Source: Candidatus Hermodarchaeota archaeon (GTDB lineage: Archaea > Asgardarchaeota > Lokiarchaeia > Sigyniarchaeales > SOKP01). Taken from it: a stretch of DNA of 20,987 nt. A model generated the notes under the pieces. It ran no database searches, was not told where the DNA came from, and saw nothing but the letters and a program-made list of their open reading frames with translations. Below, in pieces: positions 6,011 through 20,987 of the stretch. Made by a program: the position numbers and the translations under genes. The stretch spans positions 1-20,987 of the forward strand of contig JBHLLP010000055.1 in assembly GCA_048885525.1 (NCBI GenBank). The letters are read 5' to 3'. How positions within the stretch are numbered: the first letter of the stretch is position 1; each line of letters begins with the position of its first letter.

Positions 6011-6937
6011 ATGAACGAGCAGTATCGTGACCGATTCTTTAATAATAAATTTGATGAAGATCAATTACCTCAATCAAATTGCTGTAATAATCCATTTATT
6101 GAGTCACGGGACGGCAACAAAGTTTGTTTAAATTGTGGAGTGATTTTTGAACGAACTTTCGTAGGGAATGAAAGGCGTGCTTATACCATTGAAGAAATTC
6201 AGAATCGTCGAAGGACAGAACCACGATGGAGAGATTTTGGACCTAGAACTATGCTCCCGAACACAAAAACAGATAGTAAAGGTAAATCTATCGGGGCAAA
6301 GGAGCAAGCTCTTTTCTCTCGACTTTCAAAAATTCAAAATTCATTAATTTCTAGCATAGAGCGGAATTTTTGGGAAGCAAAGCCAAAATTAAAAATGTTA
6401 ACATCAAAACTTAATATTCCAGAATATATTGCTGAAACAGCATGGAAAATATATAGCATTGTTGCAAAAAAGAAATTAACGATGGGAAGATCAATCAATG
6501 GCTTTATTTCTGGATCTTTATATGCTGCAATTCGAGTTCATGATTTTCCCCGATTATTAGATGAGGTATGTGAAGCCTCATTAACACCAAGGCGAACGGT
6601 TCATAGGAGTTTAGCTATGATTATTCGTGAGGTATTACCGGAACTTAATTTAAGATACCAGCCTATTACTGCTGAAAGTTTGGTATTTCGATTTGGTAAT
6701 GAGTTGGATTTACCGATTAAAATTCAAAAAAATGCAATTAATATGTTAAAAGATGCTTCTAAAAACGGTCTCAAACGGACTGGAAAAGACCCGAAAGGAT
6801 TAGCAGCAGCTTGCATTTATATTGCAGCTAAAAATGGATGTATTCGTAAAACTCAATCACGCGTGGCTGATGTGGCAAAAATAACAGAGGTTACGCTTAG
6901 AAGTCGAGCTAAACAAATTAAAAGTAAATTATCTTAA
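6011..6937 (+). CDS. tfb: Transcription initiation factor IIB (TFB)
   Basis: 308 aa. Zn ribbon CC...VCLNCG, B-reader-like ERRAY, two cyclin repeats (MGRSING..GSLYAAIR; GKDPKGLAAACIYIAA) and HTH TQSRVADVAKITEVTLRSR. Confidence 0.95.
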   Translation: MNEQYRDRFFNNKFDEDQLPQSNCCNNPFIESRDGNKVCLNCGVIFERTFVGNERRAYTIEEIQNRRRTEPRWRDFGPRTMLPNTKTDSKGKSIGAKEQALFSRLSKIQNSLISSIERNFWEAKPKLKMLTSKLNIPEYIAETAWKIYSIVAKKKLTMGRSINGFISGSLYAAIRVHDFPRLLDEVCEASLTPRRTVHRSLAMIIREVLPELNLRYQPITAESLVFRFGNELDLPIKIQKNAINMLKDASKNGLKRTGKDPKGLAAACIYIAAKNGCIRKTQSRVADVAKITEVTLRSRAKQIKSKLS

Positions 6938-6965
6938 CTTCTTTTTTATATTTTTGAAAAAACAT

Positions 6966-7523
6966 TTAAGATTTTTCTTCCTGTTCCTGCAGAAGAGTGT
7001 ATTTTATTCCAACAGCAGTTATGACTAATCCAACGAGTAGAAAATAAGTATTTGCTGAAATAAAGAAAATCCAAAATATTGCAGGCATAATTGGAGTGAT
7101 ATTCATATTATAAAAAGCAGATTGAAAAGAAATAGTAGTCAATGTTGACGTAATCTTTGTTTTACCTAATAAGACTAAATAATTCATTTTAACAAAACCT
7201 GCTAATAAAACTACCATTCCGATAACAACCAGGAACTTTGCTAATGGAATACTTTCAATGTTATCTCTCGAAGCCACTTTAAACATAAAAAATCCAATAG
7301 TAAAATAAAAGATTACTGCAAAAATCATGAAAAACCATAATACGGTTCCTTCAAGCGGGAAAATTGTGGAAGAATATATAAACTCAGCTAGTAAGAAGGA
7401 ATCTCCATCGAGGTTAAAATATACGAAATTTAACAATATAATAAAAACAATTTCGACTAAAGAAATAATAATATATATAGAACCTACGATTTTAAGAAAT
7501 TTTAAGACTTTTTCGTATTTCAT
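6966..7523 (-). CDS. 4-TM membrane protein, unknown function
   Basis: 185 aa with four long hydrophobic segments and short loops. Confidence 0.8.
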   Translation of the reverse strand: MKYEKVLKFLKIVGSIYIIISLVEIVFIILLNFVYFNLDGDSFLLAEFIYSSTIFPLEGTVLWFFMIFAVIFYFTIGFFMFKVASRDNIESIPLAKFLVVIGMVVLLAGFVKMNYLVLLGKTKITSTLTTISFQSAFYNMNITPIMPAIFWIFFISANTYFLLVGLVITAVGIKYTLLQEQEEKS

Positions 7524-7672
7524 AATAAATACACTTTAATCTTTTTAAAAAGCAAGAAAATTTTTTATGCAATTATACTATTATTGTTTTTGAAATTAAT
7601 AAAAATTTTTAATATTATTGCTTTTGACAAATTTTATTTATTGGTAATTATATATTCCGAAATGATTTATTT

Positions 7673-8644
7673 TTGAAAAAGAAGAAGAATTCTAATTCAG
7701 AAATCTCTGTATGTTCGCATAAAAATGTCAAACAAGATAGTGGATTCATTGTTTGTCAAGATTGCGGATTAATTATGGAAGACGGTTTAGCTTTTGAATC
7801 TACAGTAGCAACGAGTGACTTTTTTACTGATTCCCAGAGAGATTATGAAAGAAGGATCAAACTAAGCGACTCAAAGGCTCTCCAAGATCCAGTTATAAAA
7901 GAGAAATACGACCGCATAAAGACCTTAGAAAAATGGTTTCGAGACTATGAATCTGATTTTACTGAACAAAAAAAGACAATTGACTTACTTAAAAGCCATG
8001 GAATTGGATTAAACATTGATAGTGTGAAATTTCAAGGAATTAAAGATAGGTATTTAAAGTATAATAAGTACCACCGTCACAATTATCAAAACATGGTCAT
8101 AATTTTTCTTGCGATTGTATGGATGAAAATTAAGGACACTACAAATATAAGGATCGAGGAATTCATCAAAGTTTCAAGGGAGTTAGGACACAAAATAAAC
8201 AAAAAGATGTTGAATAATGCGATGTTAAAAGTCAAAAGGACTGAAAATATGTTAAAAAGTAAGAAAACTAAATCAGAACTAGAAAGAGAAATCAAAAATA
8301 GGATAAAAATTGTATTTCAAAAAGATTTGAACCATATTCCTTTTGAAGCAGTAAAAGAATTTTTTACTGATAAAGAAGAATTTGAGAAAGTAAAAATGGA
8401 AATGTTGTTATTAGCTGATAAAATATTGAATAAAATCTCATACAAACAAATCCAGAATCTTAATTATAAAGCATTCACAGCAGGTTTAATTTATTACGTT
8501 GGTCAATCTCTTGATAATCGAAAAATATTTACTCAAAGTTTAATTGAACATACAAGTAAATTTTCAAGTACTACTATTAGAAAGAAATATCATGAATTGA
8601 AAGAATTATTTGGAGATGCTCAAACTCTTAAACTCCAAATTTAA
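7673..8644 (+). CDS. Divergent TFB/TFIIB-like protein (Zn ribbon plus cyclin-fold repeats)
   Basis: 323 aa. CSH..(x)..GFIVCQDCGLIM Zn ribbon, AFTAGLIYYVG and FTQSLIEHTSKFSSTTIRKKYHEL correspond to the TFB second cyclin repeat and HTH. TTG start is uncertain. Confidence 0.75.
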   Translation: MKKKKNSNSEISVCSHKNVKQDSGFIVCQDCGLIMEDGLAFESTVATSDFFTDSQRDYERRIKLSDSKALQDPVIKEKYDRIKTLEKWFRDYESDFTEQKKTIDLLKSHGIGLNIDSVKFQGIKDRYLKYNKYHRHNYQNMVIIFLAIVWMKIKDTTNIRIEEFIKVSRELGHKINKKMLNNAMLKVKRTENMLKSKKTKSELEREIKNRIKIVFQKDLNHIPFEAVKEFFTDKEEFEKVKMEMLLLADKILNKISYKQIQNLNYKAFTAGLIYYVGQSLDNRKIFTQSLIEHTSKFSSTTIRKKYHELKELFGDAQTLKLQI

Positions 8645-8731: not shown

Positions 8732-11602
8732 ATGGTATCATCAGAGATGGAAAAACCAAACCATTATTATAATCGACCAATTGAAGATTTGGTTAAACAA
8801 TTCAGTACTAATTTAGATAGAGGATTAAAATCGTCAGAATTAAATCAAAGATATTTAAAATTTGGATATAATGAATTACCAAAAATAAAAAAATCAATTT
8901 GGAAGATTTATCTTGCTCCAATTTTCAATTTTTTGATAGTTATTCTTATTATAACAGGTGTAGTAATAGTAATCTTGGGTTCTGCCGAAGAGACAGTTAT
9001 CACTTTTACCGTTGTAATTTTAAACTCTGCAACAGTAGTAATTCAACAATATAGAGCGCAAAAGGCTTTAGAATCTCTACGTCAAATCTCTGCATTAAAA
9101 GCAACAGTAATTCGAGATGGTAATCAATTAGAAGTACCAAATAGAGAATTAGTACCTGGAGATATTGTAGTATTGGAACAAGGGGATAAAATTCCTGCTG
9201 ATGGGAGAATTATAAGTCACGTAAATCTTACAGTTGATGAAGCCCCTTTGACCGGAGAAAGTGAGCCTGTAGAAAAAATAACTGAAGAAATCCAAGGTAA
9301 GGGCATTTTAATACAAAAACAATCTAATATGATATTCATGGGAACATATATTTATACAGGGAGGGCAAGATCATTGATTACTGGTACAGGTATTAATACT
9401 GAGATTGGTAAAATATCTGAAACACTAAATGAAATGGGTAGTATTGAAGATATCCCCTTGACAAGAAAATTAAATAGATTAGGGTATATTTTAGGTACAA
9501 TCGTAGTAATAAATTTGATTATTTTAATTGTTTATAAATTTTCTTTATTGTTAATTGAAGAAAATTTCATCCAATCAGAAATAAGTAGCACTCTTGTTAG
9601 TTCTATATTAAGAGCAACAAACATTTTACCCATAAATCTTCCTATTTTATCAACGTTAGTTTTAATTACGGGAGTGCTAAAAATGGCTCAAAGTGGTGTA
9701 ATCATCAAAAATCTTTCTTCAATAGAATCTCTTGGTAGAGTTTCTGTAATTTGTTCAGATAAAACAGGAACTATTACCAAAAATGAAATGACAGTTGAAA
9801 AATTTTGGATTAACGAAGAAGAATATGATGTTACTGGCTCGGGCTACGACTCTGAAGGAGAAATATATCAGAATAATACACCTGTAAGTTTGAAAGATAA
9901 TCCTACTTTTATTAAGTTTATAGAATCAATGGTGTTAAATAATAATGCCCAACTTGTATATGAAGATGTTAAAATCCGATTAAAAGAAAAAAGAGAAATA
10001 GCAGTAAGGCGAGCCTTAGGTTCTCCAACTGAAGCAGCTTTATTAGTACTAGTTGAAAAAGCGGGATATATCCCTCATGATGTAAAAAAAGAATATGAAT
10101 TTATTACTGAATATTCTTTTAGTTCTGAATTAAAACGTATGAGCTCAACATATAGGTCAAATAATAAGAAAAGTGATATATTTGTTTTTACCAAAGGAGC
10201 TCCCGAAAGGATTATTGAAATTTCTTCTAGTATTGATATAAATGGAGATATAAAACCTTTAGATTCTGATGTTAGAGAAAAAATATTAAATAAAATAGCA
10301 GATCGTGCAAATGAGGGATATAGAATTCTCGCTTTATCTTATAAAACACTAGATTATATCAACAAACCTAAACGAAAAGATATTGAAAAGGAACTAATCT
10401 TATTAGGATTTGTTTCAATTATGGACCCCCCAAGAAAAGGTGTTAAAGAGTCTATTGAACAATGCCAAAATGGAGAGATAAAGGTTATAATGATTACAGG
10501 GGATCATCCCGCGACAGCGAAAACCATCGCTTCACAGATGGGGATTTACAAACAAGGGGATTTAGTCATCGAAGGATCTCAATTAAAAAATTCAGCAAAA
10601 TTAGATTTTAAAAATATATCAGTCTTTGCTCGTGTAGAGCCTTCAGATAAAGAGATTATTGTCAAACGTTACCAAGATAACGAGCAAGTAGTCGCCATGA
10701 CAGGCGATGGCATAAATGATTCACTAGCTTTAAAGCTTGCTAATGCAGGTATAGCTATGGGTATTACAGGAACAGATGTTGCAAAAGAAACCGCTGATAT
10801 GGTTATATCAGATGATAATTTTACTTCTATTGAAAAAGGTGTAAGAATTGGTCGTGGTTTATTTTCGAAAATTAGGACAATAATCTATTTTTTTATTTGT
10901 TTGAATATAATGGAAGCTATCATCTTTTTTACTTATGAATTCATACCTACATTTGATCTCTTTAGTTCAGAATGGCAGCACATCTACATTTTTGGTATTG
11001 TACACTCTCTTCCTTCATTAGCCCTAGTAATCGATACTCATCCTAAAGATATTATGCTTGAACCTCCTAGGGACGAAGAGCAGATACTAAATAAAAATAT
11101 GTGGATAATGCTGTTAACACAAGCTTTTCTTATGGGTATTGGATTAGTTTTAGCTTTGCAATTAAGTTTAGGGCAAGTTGTTCCTTTAAATGATTGGAAC
11201 TTAAATCCTTATATTAGTTATATCAATCCTGCTTCTCCTTCTTCTGAATTGGTCGCCCAAAAAGCAAGAACTATGTTTATTACAACACTTTATATTGTCG
11301 AAACGAATTTCATATGGACTTTTAGAAGACCGAATAAATCTCTTGTTAGAAGTATCAAAGAAGAATTCAGCCTTTCATTATTAGTTATTTGTATATTTAC
11401 ATTGCTTTTACATATTCTCTATATTTGCTTTTCTTACCTTGTTAACTATTATGTAAATGATGTTTTCGGGTTAGATTTACAGATAAATTTTATGTTCCTT
11501 AGTGGAACAGATTGGATACTTTGCATTTTGCTTGCTTTACCAGGTCTAATAGGTATAGAGGTATTTAAATACATTGCTCGAGAGAGGAATATTCATTTTT
11601 AA
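8732..11602 (+). CDS. P-type ATPase, P2-like scaffold with atypical membrane site (copy 1)
   Basis: 956 aa. LTGES, CSDKTGT (D343), KGAPE, DPPR, MITGDH, FARV, TGDGIND, about 10 TM. M4 reads ILPINLP. Confidence 0.95.
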   Translation: MVSSEMEKPNHYYNRPIEDLVKQFSTNLDRGLKSSELNQRYLKFGYNELPKIKKSIWKIYLAPIFNFLIVILIITGVVIVILGSAEETVITFTVVILNSATVVIQQYRAQKALESLRQISALKATVIRDGNQLEVPNRELVPGDIVVLEQGDKIPADGRIISHVNLTVDEAPLTGESEPVEKITEEIQGKGILIQKQSNMIFMGTYIYTGRARSLITGTGINTEIGKISETLNEMGSIEDIPLTRKLNRLGYILGTIVVINLIILIVYKFSLLLIEENFIQSEISSTLVSSILRATNILPINLPILSTLVLITGVLKMAQSGVIIKNLSSIESLGRVSVICSDKTGTITKNEMTVEKFWINEEEYDVTGSGYDSEGEIYQNNTPVSLKDNPTFIKFIESMVLNNNAQLVYEDVKIRLKEKREIAVRRALGSPTEAALLVLVEKAGYIPHDVKKEYEFITEYSFSSELKRMSSTYRSNNKKSDIFVFTKGAPERIIEISSSIDINGDIKPLDSDVREKILNKIADRANEGYRILALSYKTLDYINKPKRKDIEKELILLGFVSIMDPPRKGVKESIEQCQNGEIKVIMITGDHPATAKTIASQMGIYKQGDLVIEGSQLKNSAKLDFKNISVFARVEPSDKEIIVKRYQDNEQVVAMTGDGINDSLALKLANAGIAMGITGTDVAKETADMVISDDNFTSIEKGVRIGRGLFSKIRTIIYFFICLNIMEAIIFFTYEFIPTFDLFSSEWQHIYIFGIVHSLPSLALVIDTHPKDIMLEPPRDEEQILNKNMWIMLLTQAFLMGIGLVLALQLSLGQVVPLNDWNLNPYISYINPASPSSELVAQKARTMFITTLYIVETNFIWTFRRPNKSLVRSIKEEFSLSLLVICIFTLLLHILYICFSYLVNYYVNDVFGLDLQINFMFLSGTDWILCILLALPGLIGIEVFKYIARERNIHF

Positions 11603-11718
11603 AATAATATCAAGTTTAAAAAGACACTAATTAATGAATTTTAGCAAAAAGCAATAAATTAAAAGTGAATGTTATCATAGGTTATTTATTAAATTGAATT
11701 ATATTTAGAATTCAATTA

Positions 11719-11726
11719 TTTATATA
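11719..11726 (+). promoter_or_regulatory. Candidate TATA box for the second ATPase (possibly leaderless transcript)
   Basis: TTTATATA begins 27 nt before ATG 11746 and no SD is present. AT-rich background lowers certainty. Confidence 0.35.
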
Positions 11727-11745
11727 AAGCTGTGGAAGACCCAGT

Positions 11746-14661
11746 ATGGAATCTACAGAAAAAAATTTTTATAATCTTGAATTAAGCGAGATCTATAAAA
11801 AATTTCAAACCGATCCTAAAAACGGTTTATCTGCAAAAGAAGCAGCGAATCGATTAAAAGAATATGGTTTAAATGAAATCCCTAAAGTATCCAAAGGTTT
11901 TATTAAAATATATCTTGCGCCATTATTTAATTGGTTAATCGTGATATATTTAATAGGGGCAGTAATACTAATTTTAGCATGGGCTTTCGGTGGACAGGGA
12001 GATTTAATAACTGTTGCACTGACTTTATTTATCGTCCTCTTAAATTGTTTAGTTGCTATCATTCAACAATACAGAGCAACTAAAAAGCTTAAAGCTTTAC
12101 GTGAATTAACTGCTCCCACATCAACTATAATTAGAAACGGGCAAAAACAAGAGGTTTTAACCAAAGAAATTGTTATAGGTGATCTATTAGTTTTGAATCA
12201 AGGAGATAAAATTCCTGCAGATGCGAGAATAATCGAATCGTTTAATTTAGTAGTAAATGAGGCTTCATTAACAGGAGAAAGTGAACCCGTAAGAAAAAAG
12301 GAAATAGGAGAAGCGTTGACAAAAAGAGACATCTCTATAGGAGAACGAAGTAATATGGTTTTTTATGGAACATTTATTTCGACAGGAACAGGTAAATCAA
12401 TCGTGGTAAAAACTGGTGGAAATACTGAAATAGGAAAGATTTCTCATGGTTTAGAAGAAGCTGGTACGAGTGAGATTCCAATTAGACAAAAAATGAATAA
12501 TTTTGGTAAATGGTTAGGGATTATTGTGTTTATTTTTTGGTTTATAACATTAATAATTATCTGGGTTGCAAGGGGGACACCTGAAATTGTGGAGAGTTTA
12601 AACTCTGCTCTCGATCTTATGCCAATCAACATACCATTGTTGGTTACAATTGTCTTAATAACTGGAGTTCTTGCTATGGCTCATCGTGGTGTAATTATAA
12701 GAAATCTTGCTTCAGTTGACAGTTTAGGACGTGTAAGTGTTGTATGCTCTGACAAAACGGGTACATTAACTAAGAACCAGATGAGTATTCAACATGTCTG
12801 GACAAATGGATCAATCTTTCGAGTAACAGGTAGTGGTTATAGTCCTGATGGAGATATTGTGCTTATGGATGATCCCAAGAATCATATTTATGTCAAACAT
12901 ATCGATGAATACCCATATCTCAAATTGCTTTTAACCTCTGGATTTCTAAATAATAATTCTGCTTTAGTAAAAAATGAAATTGAAATATCTGGGAAGACCT
13001 TATATAATTGGAATGTAATTGGCTCTCCTACTGAAGGAGCACTAATGGTCTTATTCCAGAAGGGTATGGGTGATTATCTTCTTGAAGATTATGAATCTAT
13101 TACAGAATATCCATTTGATTCTTCTTTAAAACGAATGACTAAGCTTTATAAAAGAGATCAAGTATACATTTCCTTTACTAAGGGGGCAAGTGAAATTTTA
13201 ATGCCTTTATGTTCAAAAGTAATATATAATGATAGTGTAATCGAATTCACTGATGAGATAAAAAAGAAGATTATGGAAATTGTAGATTTATACGCTAATC
13301 AAGGATATAGAATTTTAAGTTTATGTTATAAAGAAATGAATCAGATTCCTCCAGAAGGAGATAAAGGTAGAAAAATAAGTGAAACAGATTTAACATTTAT
13401 TGGGTTTGTTACAATTTTAGATCCACCAAGAGAAGGTGTAAGAGAGTCTGTAGAACAATGTTATGAAGCGGGAGTTGACGTTGTAATGATCACAGGAGAC
13501 TCTCCTGCTACAGCAAGGGCTATTGCTTCACAAATCGCTATAATAACTAAAGAAAGTGATATAGTTGTAGAAGGAAAAAGTATTAACAATATTGAATCTT
13601 ATGATGAATTTTCTAAAATTAAGGTATTTGCTCGAGTATCTCCCGAGCATAAAGAAGATATCGTTGAAAAATATCAAGAACAAAAAAAGGTTGTTGCTAT
13701 GACAGGAGATGGTGTAAATGATGCTTTAGCTTTGAATATGGCTGATGCAGGAGTAGCTATGGGAATTTCCGGTACTGATGTGGCTAAGGAAGCTTCAGAT
13801 ATGGTAATATCTGATGACTCTTTTAATTCAATAGTAACAGGCATTCAACATGGAAGGGGGATATTCGCAAGAATCCGTGCTGTGGTATTTTTTTATATTG
13901 TTATTAATGTGTTTGAAGGAATTGTGCAATTTTTATTAGCAATTATCTTAGATTTACCTTATTTCTTAGATGAGGCTTTCTATTATCAATGGGTTTTTCT
14001 ATCAATAACTTTACATATTTTTCCAGGATTAATTCTTACATTTGATACTACTTCAAAAGATATAATGAAAGAAAAGCCACGAGACTCAGAAGAAATCCTT
14101 TCAAAAAATACTTTTCGTCTATTATTGATATTTGGCATTTTACTTGCAATAAGTATGATAATAGTGTACTTCATAACTATTACAGGCTTCTATCCTGTTT
14201 TTCCTGAAAATATTGTTCCTGGATATTTATATTATGATGAAACACTATTACCTCCTGAGGTATATAATCTTCCAGCCGTAGAATTAGCCGAGATTCTAGA
14301 AAAGATAAATGTAATTAGAACTATTGGAAAAACCTTAACAATGATGATGTGTGTTCTATTTTTCTGCGAATCCTTTCTTGTATATCAGATTAGAAGACCA
14401 AATAAATCTTTAATTAAGAGTCTTATCGAAGATCGAAATAAATTTATGTTTATTCTGATTGGAATTTTATTCTTTGTTTTCATCGCTCTACTTTATATTC
14501 CCGGAGTACAAACTTTCTTAGCAGATTCATGGAGGATCAATTTTATGTTTATGCCTTTAACAGGATTAGATTGGTTGGTATGTTTCTTAATTTCTTTAGT
14601 CTGTATCGTATCATTTGAGATTGTAAAATGGTTAGCGCGTAGAAAAAGTATTACTTTTTAA
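11746..14661 (+). CDS. P-type ATPase, P2-like scaffold with atypical membrane site (copy 2)
   Basis: 971 aa. LTGES, CSDKTGT (D336), KGASE, DPPR, MITGDS, FARV, TGDGVND, about 10 TM. M4 reads LMPINIP. Confidence 0.95.
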   Translation: MESTEKNFYNLELSEIYKKFQTDPKNGLSAKEAANRLKEYGLNEIPKVSKGFIKIYLAPLFNWLIVIYLIGAVILILAWAFGGQGDLITVALTLFIVLLNCLVAIIQQYRATKKLKALRELTAPTSTIIRNGQKQEVLTKEIVIGDLLVLNQGDKIPADARIIESFNLVVNEASLTGESEPVRKKEIGEALTKRDISIGERSNMVFYGTFISTGTGKSIVVKTGGNTEIGKISHGLEEAGTSEIPIRQKMNNFGKWLGIIVFIFWFITLIIIWVARGTPEIVESLNSALDLMPINIPLLVTIVLITGVLAMAHRGVIIRNLASVDSLGRVSVVCSDKTGTLTKNQMSIQHVWTNGSIFRVTGSGYSPDGDIVLMDDPKNHIYVKHIDEYPYLKLLLTSGFLNNNSALVKNEIEISGKTLYNWNVIGSPTEGALMVLFQKGMGDYLLEDYESITEYPFDSSLKRMTKLYKRDQVYISFTKGASEILMPLCSKVIYNDSVIEFTDEIKKKIMEIVDLYANQGYRILSLCYKEMNQIPPEGDKGRKISETDLTFIGFVTILDPPREGVRESVEQCYEAGVDVVMITGDSPATARAIASQIAIITKESDIVVEGKSINNIESYDEFSKIKVFARVSPEHKEDIVEKYQEQKKVVAMTGDGVNDALALNMADAGVAMGISGTDVAKEASDMVISDDSFNSIVTGIQHGRGIFARIRAVVFFYIVINVFEGIVQFLLAIILDLPYFLDEAFYYQWVFLSITLHIFPGLILTFDTTSKDIMKEKPRDSEEILSKNTFRLLLIFGILLAISMIIVYFITITGFYPVFPENIVPGYLYYDETLLPPEVYNLPAVELAEILEKINVIRTIGKTLTMMMCVLFFCESFLVYQIRRPNKSLIKSLIEDRNKFMFILIGILFFVFIALLYIPGVQTFLADSWRINFMFMPLTGLDWLVCFLISLVCIVSFEIVKWLARRKSITF

Positions 14662-17742: not shown

Positions 17743-20700
17743 ATGATCTATAGTCACAATACCTCAAAAAATAAAAGGATTAAAGTAATTGTTATTACAT
17801 TTTCAATTTTAATTATCTTAAGTTTTATAGACTTTAATAATTCCTTAATTTCTATAATTAACTCCAATGAAGAAAAGCAATTTAATGACGATTTAAATGA
17901 TTTTAAAAATCCTAAAATAAATTCGAACGGTCCAAATGCAAGACCTTTGTTAATATATCAGCATGCCACTATTTCCAACACCTTTCTCCCTTTATCATTA
18001 CCTCAAAATGTCAGTTTTACATTATCAGAAAATTGGATTTCTAAAAATGTTACACTATATTATGATGGAGTATCTCATAAAAAGGATTGGATTATCAATG
18101 GGACTTTTGATACTGGTGTAGCTCCATGGCAATTTATTACTTCTGATATTACAGTAATAGAGAGTATAGCATGGCAACCAGAATATGTGGGGATAGAAAT
18201 TGCTAAAAATAAACTAGTTCCTAAAGGAGCTTACGGTTTTTATGAAGATAATTTTACAATTGCTGAACCATTAGCTTCTAATACAATTGCAACTTTATCT
18301 ATGAGATACAAACATACTTTAGAGGCAGGAGGATCGATTTCAAATGAAAATATTAGTGCTTTTATTTCTATTGCAGCTGGAAATGTTCAAAAAAACATTT
18401 CTATACCCTTTATTGATTTGGTGAAAAATTATTGGACAGAGATGAGTGTAACCTATGATCTCACAAATATTGGTCAGCAACTTCCCAATAATATTACAGT
18501 AAGAGCAGGAGTTTATGTACATAATGAGACTCAAACTAGTCCCAAAATACACTATCTTTATCTTGACGATATTAAATTTCAAGTTTGGACTGAACCAAAT
18601 GAAAAAAATTTAATTATCGCCAAGGATGTTGATTTTAATGTGGAATATGGTTATCAAAACATTACATATGGTAAAGGCAAAACCTTTATTGATATCGAAA
18701 GAAATAGTACAGTAACTAGAGACGTTAAATTCACAATCTCAAAAAATTCGACTATTACAAATGAATTATTTATCTATAACATAACTATTGTTTCGCAAAC
18801 AATTAAAATTTTTAATTCAACAATAAATGGTCAAACTGGTAGTCTTTATTTGCCTCAAACTGACATAAATTGGAAAATAGAGTGTTCTATTTCAATTCCT
18901 TATGGTTATATTAATAATTGGGTTGAAATCAAGAAGCCTATTGATTGGAACGTTACTTCTGTCTTGAATGGATATGGAGTTGAAAAAAAATCAAGCTGCA
19001 TTGGGATAGAATATGGTTCTGACAGTTTAATAATACCTATTGGGGAATTGAGTACCGGCTTTTGGACCGTTCAAGCAATTGGGGTAAATTATATTAGTAA
19101 AGGAACTATGGCTGTTTGGAATGGAACACATCATAATGAAGAATACCTTGTTTCATACGGAGATAACTTTCTTATAAAAGTAAGTTTAAATGAGACAATT
19201 TCTTTGACGAATACACAAATAAATTGCACAATTGAATATCCTAATGGCACGATTTTCAATGAAATTCAAAAAGAACCATTATCATACGATGTAGATCTTG
19301 AAGATTTTACAGTTGGAGATAACATGTCGGTTGGAGAATATCAAGTAAGTATAATATGGACGAATAATCAATCTTATTTAAGAAGAGATAAAGTAGGATT
19401 TTCTCAATTTTCATTCAAAGTATGGCATCATACAAATCTAACTGCTATAAATTCTTATGTAGAAAGAGTTTCCGGAGAACCACTTTTAATAAGAGTAAAG
19501 TATGTGGATTTAGATTTTAATAAAAATATTGATTTTGCTACAGTAACTTATAATTCTACTTTCGGGACTTTTGGAAATATGGCTTATATTGGTTCAGGAG
19601 TCTATGTTATCGACGTTGATTCAAGTGGATTAGGAGTTGGAGATTATTATTTTTCATTCAATGCTTCAAAAAGTTACTATGAGAATCAATCTATAGCAAA
19701 TCTAATTCATTTAAAAATAATAATTCAACCACTAGAATTAGAGGTTCCGCATACTATTATCAATGCATTAGCAAATGATTATGCTATTTGTCAGATAAAT
19801 GTTACTGGAGCGATTTCTGGAACTTTATTACCTGGTGATACAAATATTACTACTGATTGGATGAATCCGTATTCTGTTACAAATATTAGTACTGGTATAT
19901 ATGAACTTAACTTTTCAACATATAATATCCCATCTCAAGGTATTACAGAAGTTTATACTGTTACTATTTTTGCTAATAAGACTGATTATGGAAGCACTAC
20001 TGGCTTTATTTCGATACAGGTACAACCCTTAGCTGCCACAGTAAATCTAAATCAATCTATCGTTAATATATTATTCAATGAGAGTTTTTATTTAAAGTTG
20101 AATTATAGTGAAACTGGAACTGGTGAATTAATTGCCGGAGCCCAATTAAATGTAACATGGACATCAACCTATACGATTTATCCTGTTTCTGATGGTTTTA
20201 TAGTATTTTTTTCTACTGTCAATCTTTCGATAGATATTTATACAATTATCTTTCAATTAAGTCATCCAGGGTATGAAACTACTTTTGAGAAGATATTTGT
20301 AAATATAGGTCCAAAACTAGCTTATATAGAACTATATTTGAATCAAGAAGACAGAACAACAGAAAAGACCATCACAATTGAATCCAATGAGGATTTGAAT
20401 ATTACCGTATTATGTAAGGATTCTTTAACAAATAATTTCATTTCTGGTGCTATGGTTGAATTGAATGGACCAGGAGTTTCAAGAATCTTAAATGAAAATG
20501 GGCAACAATATGAAACTAATTTAAGTGCAGGTTCTTTACCTATTGGAATTCATTTCCCAACAATTACAATCAATAAAGAAAATTATTTCCTCACTTCAGA
20601 AACTTTTAAAATTGTAGTAGAACAAGTAGAGATTTCAGTAGGGACTATAGGTTTTAAAACATCTCTTGACGTATATGCTGGAAGCACTCAATTAATTAAG

Positions 20701-20987
20701 ATTAACTTGACTGAACAAAATACTGGAATTTTAATTCCGAATGCTAATATTTCATTCTTGTGGAGATATTCCACAGAATTAAATTACTTTGAAGATTTAG
20801 GTGATGGGACTTATCAAATTCAAATAAATATTCCAAGCAGTGCATCGGGAAGTTTTAGAGTTGATCTTCTGATATCAGTTGAAGAAGGATTTTATAAAAT
20901 TACGGAATTCTCTTTTCTTATTGTAGTATTACAAGAATCAACTGGTGATAATACTTTAGTTTGGATAGTTTCGATAATACTATTAAG
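17743..20987 (+). CDS. Large cell-surface glycoprotein with CBM-like and Ig-like repeats, 3'-partial
   Basis: Not in the ORF track. Hand translation from ATG 17743 shows no stop over 1081 codons. N-terminal KNKRIK plus hydrophobic segment, beta-rich repeats (GxYxIxxxT/S...Y...xxxKxxY), many NxS/T sequons, and a hydrophobic helix starting at the edge (TLVWIVSIILL). Confidence 0.88.
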   Translation, partial: MIYSHNTSKNKRIKVIVITFSILIILSFIDFNNSLISIINSNEEKQFNDDLNDFKNPKINSNGPNARPLLIYQHATISNTFLPLSLPQNVSFTLSENWISKNVTLYYDGVSHKKDWIINGTFDTGVAPWQFITSDITVIESIAWQPEYVGIEIAKNKLVPKGAYGFYEDNFTIAEPLASNTIATLSMRYKHTLEAGGSISNENISAFISIAAGNVQKNISIPFIDLVKNYWTEMSVTYDLTNIGQQLPNNITVRAGVYVHNETQTSPKIHYLYLDDIKFQVWTEPNEKNLIIAKDVDFNVEYGYQNITYGKGKTFIDIERNSTVTRDVKFTISKNSTITNELFIYNITIVSQTIKIFNSTINGQTGSLYLPQTDINWKIECSISIPYGYINNWVEIKKPIDWNVTSVLNGYGVEKKSSCIGIEYGSDSLIIPIGELSTGFWTVQAIGVNYISKGTMAVWNGTHHNEEYLVSYGDNFLIKVSLNETISLTNTQINCTIEYPNGTIFNEIQKEPLSYDVDLEDFTVGDNMSVGEYQVSIIWTNNQSYLRRDKVGFSQFSFKVWHHTNLTAINSYVERVSGEPLLIRVKYVDLDFNKNIDFATVTYNSTFGTFGNMAYIGSGVYVIDVDSSGLGVGDYYFSFNASKSYYENQSIANLIHLKIIIQPLELEVPHTIINALANDYAICQINVTGAISGTLLPGDTNITTDWMNPYSVTNISTGIYELNFSTYNIPSQGITEVYTVTIFANKTDYGSTTGFISIQVQPLAATVNLNQSIVNILFNESFYLKLNYSETGTGELIAGAQLNVTWTSTYTIYPVSDGFIVFFSTVNLSIDIYTIIFQLSHPGYETTFEKIFVNIGPKLAYIELYLNQEDRTTEKTITIESNEDLNITVLCKDSLTNNFISGAMVELNGPGVSRILNENGQQYETNLSAGSLPIGIHFPTITINKENYFLTSETFKIVVEQVEISVGTIGFKTSLDVYAGSTQLIKINLTEQNTGILIPNANISFLWRYSTELNYFEDLGDGTYQIQINIPSSASGSFRVDLLISVEEGFYKITEFSFLIVVLQESTGDNTLVWIVSIILL

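Follow-up and report, generated by a model that had tools for sequence, protein, structure and literature searches.

A conserved membrane histidine marks a candidate subfamily of P2-type ATPases in Asgard archaea

Candidatus Hermodarchaeota archaeon (assembly GCA_048885525.1), an Asgard archaeon of Promethearchaeota/Lokiarchaeia type with a GC content of about 30%, carries two adjacent genes for P-type ATPases on contig JBHLLP010000055.1. We analysed a stretch of 20,987 nucleotides of this contig (positions 1 to 20,987, forward strand), which as a whole we call the window. Both genes are complete and lie on the plus strand: ATPase A (P0001; 8732-11602) encodes 956 amino acids and its paralogue ATPase B (P0002; 11746-14661) encodes 971, and the two proteins are 42% identical over their full length. 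The specificity of P-type ATPases is set by a few residues in the membrane helices M4, M5, M6 and M8, and each previously defined subfamily is known by such a signature. Here we describe a candidate subfamily of P2-type ATPases, represented by both genes, which would be marked by a new signature of this kind, namely a PxNxP motif in M4 together with a histidine in M6.

The open reading frames (ORFs), their translations and searches against Pfam and NCBIfam establish the general nature of both proteins. In Pfam each matches E1-E2_ATPase, Cation_ATPase_N, Cation_ATPase_C, Hydrolase and Cation_ATPase, and scores of 276 and 288 bits against TIGR01494 (cut-off 62) place them in the P-type superfamily. 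Their catalytic motifs TGES, DKTGT, TGD and GDGxND are all intact, including the TGES phosphatase motif of the A-domain (9251-9262 in A, 12271-12282 in B, plus strand as for all features below) and the DKTGT phosphorylation motif (9758-9772 and 12751-12765). At the hinge, GDGIND of ATPase A (10703-10720; local reading GDGINDSLAL, 10703-10732) and GDGVND of ATPase B (13705-13722; followed by A-L-A-L, local reading GDGVNDALAL, 13705-13734) lead into a leucine that is found in 87% of the clade described below, where canonical pumps read GDGVNDAP with proline in 94%; this position lies outside the ion site. Both genes are predicted to encode catalytically competent enzymes with a normal E1/E2 phospho-enzyme cycle. 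The top NCBIfam matches are the equivalog models of SERCA-type and PMR1-type Ca2+-ATPases, with all scores far below cut-off: TIGR01116 gave 460 bits for ATPase A (its top NCBIfam match) and 428 for ATPase B against a required 703, and TIGR01522 gave 459 and 494 against 798. Clade members are annotated in their sources as 'Ca2+-transporting' or 'cation-translocating' ATPases.

It is the membrane site that sets these proteins apart from P2A pumps. M6 reads QHIYIFGIVHSLP in ATPase A (residues 749-761; 10976-11014), with H758 encoded at 11003-11005, and QWVFLSITLHIFP in ATPase B (residues 748-760; 13987-14025), with H757 encoded at 14014-14016. HMMER alignments to proteins of solved structure set the histidine opposite the M6 aspartate of Listeria LMCA1 ('qllfinlvnDslp' vs 'qhiyifgivHslp', the alignment used for ATPase A) and of Na,K-ATPase alpha1 ('idlgtDmvp' vs 'lsitlHifp'); for ATPase B the position also rests on the clade alignment. 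The histidine position is therefore that of SERCA D800 and Na,K-ATPase D808. A search of the PDB with the 74-residue M5-M6 piece alone returned no match, and the Na,K-ATPase alignment came from a longer piece. In SERCA, D800 bridges Ca2+ sites I and II.

The remaining helices combine retained and replaced residues. M5 carries LNIME in ATPase A (residues 724-728; 10901-10915) and INVFE in ATPase B (residues 720-724; 13903-13917), whose asparagine and glutamate are the equivalents of SERCA N768/E771 and Na,K-ATPase N776/E779 (HMMER pairs 'tsNipE' of Na,K-ATPase alpha1 with 'viNvfE'). M8 keeps its glutamate in YIVET (A, residues 854-858; 11291-11305) and FFCES (B, residues 872-876; 14359-14373). 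At the PEGLP position of M4, ATPase A has PINLP (residues 300-304; 9629-9643) and ATPase B PINIP (residues 293-297; 12622-12636), with isoleucine for the gating glutamate and asparagine for glycine. M1 contains KIYLAP in both (A, residues 58-63, 8903-8920; B, residues 54-59, 11905-11922), where tyrosine, alanine and proline are clade-specific replacements of the canonical F/x/Q and the proline stands in for a glutamine conserved in 91% of canonical pumps. M2 contains IQQYRA (A, residues 104-109, 9041-9058; B, residues 106-111, 12061-12078), whose second glutamine replaces a residue that is glutamate in 96% of canonical relatives.

An earlier note, made from the letters of the window alone, had given all of these M1, M2, M5, M6 and M8 strings correctly, as well as the exact coordinates of the two histidines, and what it concluded from them is supported in part. 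The replacement of the M6 aspartate by histidine in both copies is borne out by the alignments to LMCA1 and Na,K-ATPase, and its reading of the N796/T799/D800 equivalents as F/V/H and S/L/H is correct. Its suggestions for the remaining site, a proton relay, a soft metal or a polar headgroup, are best read as hypotheses. Its claim that Ca2+ site II is abolished is supported, since all three side-chain ligands of that site are replaced: E309 by I, V, F, W or L, D800 by histidine, and N796 by a variable residue (F or Y in proteins of the ATPase A type; S, T or A in those of the ATPase B type). The T799 equivalent is free to vary among V, L, A, T, S, I and M. Thus, where P2A pumps have N796/T799/D800 in M6 and the gating glutamate E309 of PEGLP in M4, the clade has F..VH or S..LH and P-[IVFWLM]-[NST]-x-P. 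What the note overlooked is the glycine-to-asparagine change in M4, which gives PxNxP and is the constant partner of the M6 histidine.

To place the two proteins among their relatives, 1.84 billion representatives at 50% identity were searched and the best 150 relatives aligned. These split cleanly into about 48 proteins with a P-[IVFWLM]-N-x-P M4 and an M6 histidine, and a remainder in which M4 is of PEGLP type and M6 carries N..(T)D. The histidine is present in 47 of the 48 full-length clade representatives at 50% identity; in a set of 145 sequences it occurs in all 47 clade members and in none of the 97 outside, where 90 have aspartate and the other seven E, S or N. It is likewise found in every one of 120 close homologues of ATPase A, in all 16 homologues that we extracted from a further 12 Asgard genomes, and in seven of seven further sister-group proteins from organisms named Helarchaeota, Lokiarchaeia or Promethearchaeota. 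Among 29 diverse members of the clade, 34-56% identical to ATPase B, H757, P293 of M4, E724 of M5 and the catalytic residues are invariant, and N295 of M4, P760 of M6 and E875 of M8 are at least 90% conserved. Across the clade as a whole the M5 asparagine is mostly kept, the M5 glutamate always, and the M8 glutamate in about 90%, in agreement with the note, which had also taken the M1 and M2 motifs to be common to both copies; they are, although the second glutamine of 'QQxRA' reaches only about 91% and is not invariant.

Two proteins bear on how tightly the M4 and M6 changes are coupled. The M4 asparagine is about 90% conserved, with some members reading PISIP or PITIP, and the single representative without the histidine, P0150 from a JGI metagenome, has PVSIP in M4, 'TQFA-PSI' in M6 and glutamine for the M8 glutamate, so that histidine, asparagine and glutamate are lost together; this protein may be decayed or re-specialised. 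P0140 has PIMIP in M4 and 'HD' in M6. From this pattern, the M4 asparagine and the M6 histidine go together in our sample. The note had named variability of the histidine among homologues as the observation that would speak against its view; the residue is instead effectively invariant across a deep clade, which argues for selection rather than decay, as had been proposed from only two paralogues. That the change is a strongly selected signature of the clade is thus well supported by the comparison of sequences, the pattern going far beyond what chance would produce.

Phylogenetic trees are consistent with this picture. In both a FastTree tree (145 rows) and an IQ-TREE tree (LG+G4; 43 rows), each of them unrooted, one branch, supported at 100%, has all the canonical pumps to one side of it. 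The histidine-bearing proteins fall into a main clade, itself supported at 100%, and two small groups nearer the canonical pumps, the latter with IP[FWV]NFP in M4. ATPases A and B both belong to the main clade and both carry its set of PxNxP, M6 histidine, M5 glutamate and M8 glutamate. On the simplest reading, the histidine would have had one origin and a single later loss. Since the sister groups already have the asparagine and the histidine, yet keep a canonical M1 ('PQxFD') and have none of the M1/M2 changes, the M4/M6 pair is the core change and the neutralisation of M1 and M2 a later one. ATPases A and B sit in different deep subclades, so their duplication is old.

Further clade-specific positions accompany the signature. 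Before M3, the threonine of 'TPLQ' is isoleucine in 85% of the clade, again outside the ion site; L298, L299 and T306 are clade-specific in M4; and M8 is followed by an 'RRPNKS' motif. Between M7 and M8, the extracellular loop (14200-14330 in ATPase B, with an equivalent in ATPase A) holds an insert with conserved N822 and K862 that canonical relatives do not have; this insert might provide a docking surface or belong to an exit pathway.

As far as searched, the branch appears to be restricted to Asgard archaea. With the C-terminal M5-M10 segment of ATPase A as query, for which canonical pumps reach only E ~1e-7, 302 of the 400 genomes searched in the window's phylum gave a match at E <=1e-10, as did 72 of its 90 high-quality genomes. 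Within the window's own family the query matched 121 of 134 genomes, and nearly every one of these has two hits on the same strand at a distance of about 3 kb, from which we conclude that the tandem pair is conserved there; Asgard families beyond it have one copy in most cases. This query gave no match at E <=1e-15 in 803 sampled genomes (301, 251 and 251) of three other phyla, those of a 'Methanosarcinales'-labelled metagenome-assembled genome, of Methanobacterium and of Anaerolinea, a sample that excludes Thermoproteota and most bacterial phyla. A search of genome contigs with the clade alignment keyed on the universal motifs CSDKTGT and GDGVNDA and is uninformative on range: none of the 80 loci inspected from it had the M6 histidine, and the matches listed were all canonical pumps from many phyla. 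The named members of the clade are all Asgard (the close homologues being labelled Promethearchaeota, Lokiarchaeota, Thor-, Hermod- or Hodarchaeota), with the exception of one protein, P0399 (TKJ45548.1), deposited as 'Candidatus Aerophobetes bacterium Ae_b3b'. Since Lokiarchaeota proteins share at least 90% identity with it, it probably stems from a mis-binned contig.

By fold and overall sequence, the two proteins are of P2 type. An AlphaFold2 model of ATPase B built from the clade alignment (mean predicted local distance difference test score, pLDDT, 82.4; predicted TM-score, pTM, 0.73) shows the M4 helix unwound at 290-294. The 50 best Foldseek matches in the PDB are all P2 pumps (SPCA, SERCA, Na,K- and H,K-ATPases), that is P2A or P2C, at a TM-score of about 0.7, with SPCA1 and SERCA2b in E2P-like states as the best; the ten-helix architecture and the Cation_ATPase_N and Cation_ATPase_C domains agree with this. 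By its homology to D800/D808, the histidine would face the M5 and M8 glutamates.

Comparison with the known subfamilies suggests where such a pump could stand. P2A pumps (SERCA, SPCA1/PMR1, LMCA1) are the best matches in both sequence (LMCA1 at E ~1e-127) and fold, and share with the clade the ten helices, the catalytic motifs, N..E in M5, the M8 glutamate and the Q....P frame of M6. They differ from it in M4, which is PxN(I/L)P in the clade, in the M6 histidine and the loss of the M6 asparagine, and in the acidic funnel of M1/M2, which is neutralised here; the M7-M8 insert with its asparagine and lysine, the GDGVNDAL hinge and the scores below the TIGR01116 and TIGR01522 cut-offs are further differences, and by its defining site residues as well as by its equivalog models P2A does not include the two proteins. 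An M6 histidine is known from the P1B-4 pumps (sCoaT, CzcP, PfeT), which have SPC in M4 and HEGxT in M6. There the histidine, H657, is functionally essential and packs against the SPC motif, and the pump has a single transport site (PMC8880997); for H657 a role as built-in counter-ion, and perhaps also as ligand, has been suggested (PMC8880997; PMC10654040). This likeness is one of mechanism and not of descent, since P1B-4 pumps have eight helices, a cysteine in M4 and neither Cation_ATPase_N nor Cation_ATPase_C. Membership in P1B-4 was accordingly rejected on the P2 architecture of the clade, the absence of SPC and HEGxT, and scores of only 170-240 bits with the NCBIfam heavy-metal models. 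P6 pumps, of the Mycobacterium CtpE type, resemble the clade as another P2-like prokaryotic branch without the M6 aspartate; they have retained PEGL and changed the aspartate to isoleucine (PMC10654040), while the clade has lost PEGL and carries the histidine, and P6 membership was rejected on these grounds. We found no description of the clade in the literature, although an existing 'FUPA' family bin in TCDB could still contain it.

The interpretation that we favour, with a confidence only somewhat above even, is that of a P2-type Asgard branch with a single-site pocket that moves one non-Ca2+ cation per cycle, most likely a borderline divalent metal. The two-Ca2+ pocket would have been reduced to one site through the dismantling of site II (the gating glutamate made hydrophobic, the M6 asparagine released from constraint, the bridging aspartate turned into histidine), leaving the M4 asparagine, the M5 asparagine and glutamate, the M6 histidine and the M8 glutamate. 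In the main clade, the acidic M1/M2 residues of the cytoplasmic entry funnel would in addition have been neutralised. Within a normal phospho-enzyme cycle that transports a single non-Ca2+ cation, the histidine could serve as a nitrogen ligand in E1, as a titratable built-in counter-ion, or both. Sites for Ca2+, Mg2+, Na+ and K+ are built of oxygen ligands; histidine together with carboxylates is instead typical of sites that transport Zn, Fe, Mn, Co and Ni, of which CDF proteins provide examples. It is this likeness of an imidazole among carboxylates and amides to a transition-metal ligand set, together with the P1B-4 precedent, that leads us to a one-cation pump, to the histidine as ligand or counter-ion and to a metal as cargo. 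In that precedent, the M6 histidine of a P-type pump for transition metals works jointly with the M4 motif (PMC8880997; PMC10654040). As to the substrate, Mn2+, Fe2+, Co2+, Ni2+ or Zn2+ would be our first choice and H+ our second; these, like the single-site stoichiometry, the role of the histidine and the direction of transport, are inferred.

Several observations weigh against a metal. In the proteins and their gene neighbourhoods we found neither a metal-binding domain nor a metal-responsive regulator, nor is any functional neighbour conserved, and the genome has two CDF-type exporters as well as CorA and MgtE-like genes, leaving no evident transport gap that would point to a metal (CNNM was not found when the genome was searched for such gaps, and the pattern of CorA, MgtE, CDF and CNNM is uninformative). 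Moreover, a neutral entry funnel is no less suited to H+ than to a divalent cation, and a hydrophobic residue in place of the M4 glutamate is also seen in the P3A proton pumps. These last two points lend some weight to the idea of an electrogenic, P3A-like H+ pump in which no metal takes part and the histidine, with its near-neutral pKa and hydrogen-bonded to the M4 asparagine and the M5 and M8 glutamates, would accept and donate the proton. The P3A enzymes AHA2 and Pma1 share with the clade the PxxxP frame with a hydrophobic residue, as in the P-I-A-M-P of plant and fungal H+-ATPases, and a single titratable residue in central M6, here at the D800 position; the proline gained in M1 and the neutralised M1/M2 funnel would suit such a pump, and one may reason that an ATP-driven extruder of H+ could be useful to fermentative Asgard cells. 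We regard it as a serious rival, though rather unlikely. All known P-type H+ pumps use a carboxylate and not a histidine, P3A pumps having an M6 aspartate; they also have an M5 arginine and lack the M5 and M8 glutamates that are conserved here, and our comparison of clade positions found no conserved membrane arginine or lysine that could provide a pKa switch. TIGR01647 gave only 337 and 349 bits against 615, below the scores of the P2A models, and P3A membership was rejected on this score, the M6 histidine and an M5 N..E without arginine.

A pump for a hard divalent cation (Ca2+, Mg2+ or Mn2+), working 1:1 like LMCA1, PMCA or SPCA with the histidine tuning affinity or pH dependence, would agree with the 'Ca2+-transporting ATPase' annotations, with Ca2+ and Mn2+ pumps being the best matches in sequence and fold, and with the retained M5 asparagine and glutamate and M8 glutamate. 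We consider it improbable, as the M4 glutamate and M6 aspartate that all single-site Ca2+ pumps keep are both lost, the equivalog scores are far under their cut-offs (460 vs 703 and 494 vs 798), and CorA and MgtE are at hand for Mg2+. The genome furthermore has four P-type ATPases, namely the pair, a CopA-like copper pump with a CPC motif (contig 7, L005:3473-6376; HMA domain, Cys-rich C-terminus) and a canonical P2A pump of Ca2+ type (contig 9, L006:2158-5007, minus strand) with AVPEGL in M4 and NIATDG in M6, QILWLNIATDGIP; given this canonical pump, the pair is not by default the Ca2+ exporter of the cell. Still less probable is the transport of an organic molecule that is bulky or polar (a lipid head group, for example, or a polyamine) through the hydrophobic gate of a P-I-N/S/T-I/L M4, in the manner of the P-I-S-L of P4 flippases. 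M4, with its hydrophobic gate residue, does resemble that motif (P-I-(S/N/T)-(L/I), and PISIP or PITIP in some members), and among prokaryotes the host lineage stands closest to the eukaryotes, to which P4 pumps are thought to be unique (PMC10654040). However, P4 pumps have DGET where the clade has TGES, differ in M5 and M6 and usually need a Cdc50 subunit, and the sequence similarity to them is very weak; no P4 or P5 structure is among the 50 best fold matches, and the second proline of PxxxP follows the P2/P3 pattern. With TGES present and TIGR01652 at only 108 and 118 bits against 431, P4 membership was rejected. Finally, we give very little credence to decayed or non-transporting paralogues, for instance sensors or scaffolds: while P0150 shows that histidine, asparagine and M8 glutamate can be lost together, the catalytic motifs of the pair are all intact and the membrane residues are strongly conserved across a deep clade that has members in 302 of 400 Asgard genomes.

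Alongside the favoured single-site, probably metal-transporting branch, we entertain a broader proposal, which is possible though doubtful: that the clade is an Asgard-specific branch at family level whose substrate is none of those known for P2 pumps (Ca2+, Mn2+, Na+, K+ and H+). Such a substrate might be a transition metal bound at a His/Glu/Glu/Asn site that arose independently of P1B, or, less likely, a polar head group passing the P-I-N/S-L hydrophobic gate. Should the latter be true, the handling of head groups would represent a prokaryotic forerunner of flippase-type transport in the lineage leading to eukaryotes.

The practical consequences concern annotation above all. Because the ion pocket is rebuilt around an invariant histidine, the 'Ca2+' label of the clade is probably wrong and the substrate almost certainly other than calcium. 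In a survey of the Asgard transportome, the presence of putative Ca2+-ATPase orthologues in each of the five Asgard proteomes was taken to support Ca2+ signalling (PMC7997004); such a conclusion should rest on the canonical type of pump and not on the histidine clade, whose signature occurs in about three quarters of the sampled Asgard genomes, often as a tandem pair and beside an ordinary Ca2+ pump. A review of 2023 expected further prokaryotic P-type families to be found (PMC10654040), and the clade is a concrete candidate for one of these.

The surroundings of the pair have a gene order that is conserved within the window's family. Its neighbours are a gene for TFB, a 185-aa membrane protein, a divergent TFB-like gene, a DUF362 gene and an F420/luciferase-like oxidoreductase. 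The block directly upstream, at 6011-8644, with TFB (308 aa), the 185-aa protein, which is multi-pass and encoded on the opposite strand, and the TFB-like gene (323 aa, with only a weak Zn-ribbon match), recurs in synteny in three or more genomes of the family (window 6011-8644; L087:2903-5522; L090:14262-16907) and not in other Asgard families. The order TFB, 185-aa protein, TFB-like gene, ATPase A, ATPase B, DUF362 is thus kept within the window's family only and is uninformative on the substrate; beyond the family, comparison of neighbourhoods found no conserved partner, metal regulator or candidate subunit.

Two other parts of the window deserve a brief mention. At its start, a tungsten-type aldehyde:ferredoxin oxidoreductase (AFOR_N, AFOR_C) adjoins a 4Fe-4S protein (3-1433 and 1471-2313); a homologue of the oxidoreductase lies near the ATPase genes in L087 and L091 as well, perhaps as loose synteny only. 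At the other end, an open-ended ORF of more than 1081 aa (17743-20985) without a Pfam match has an N-terminal membrane anchor and many N-x-S/T sequons, and probably encodes a large glycosylated surface protein.

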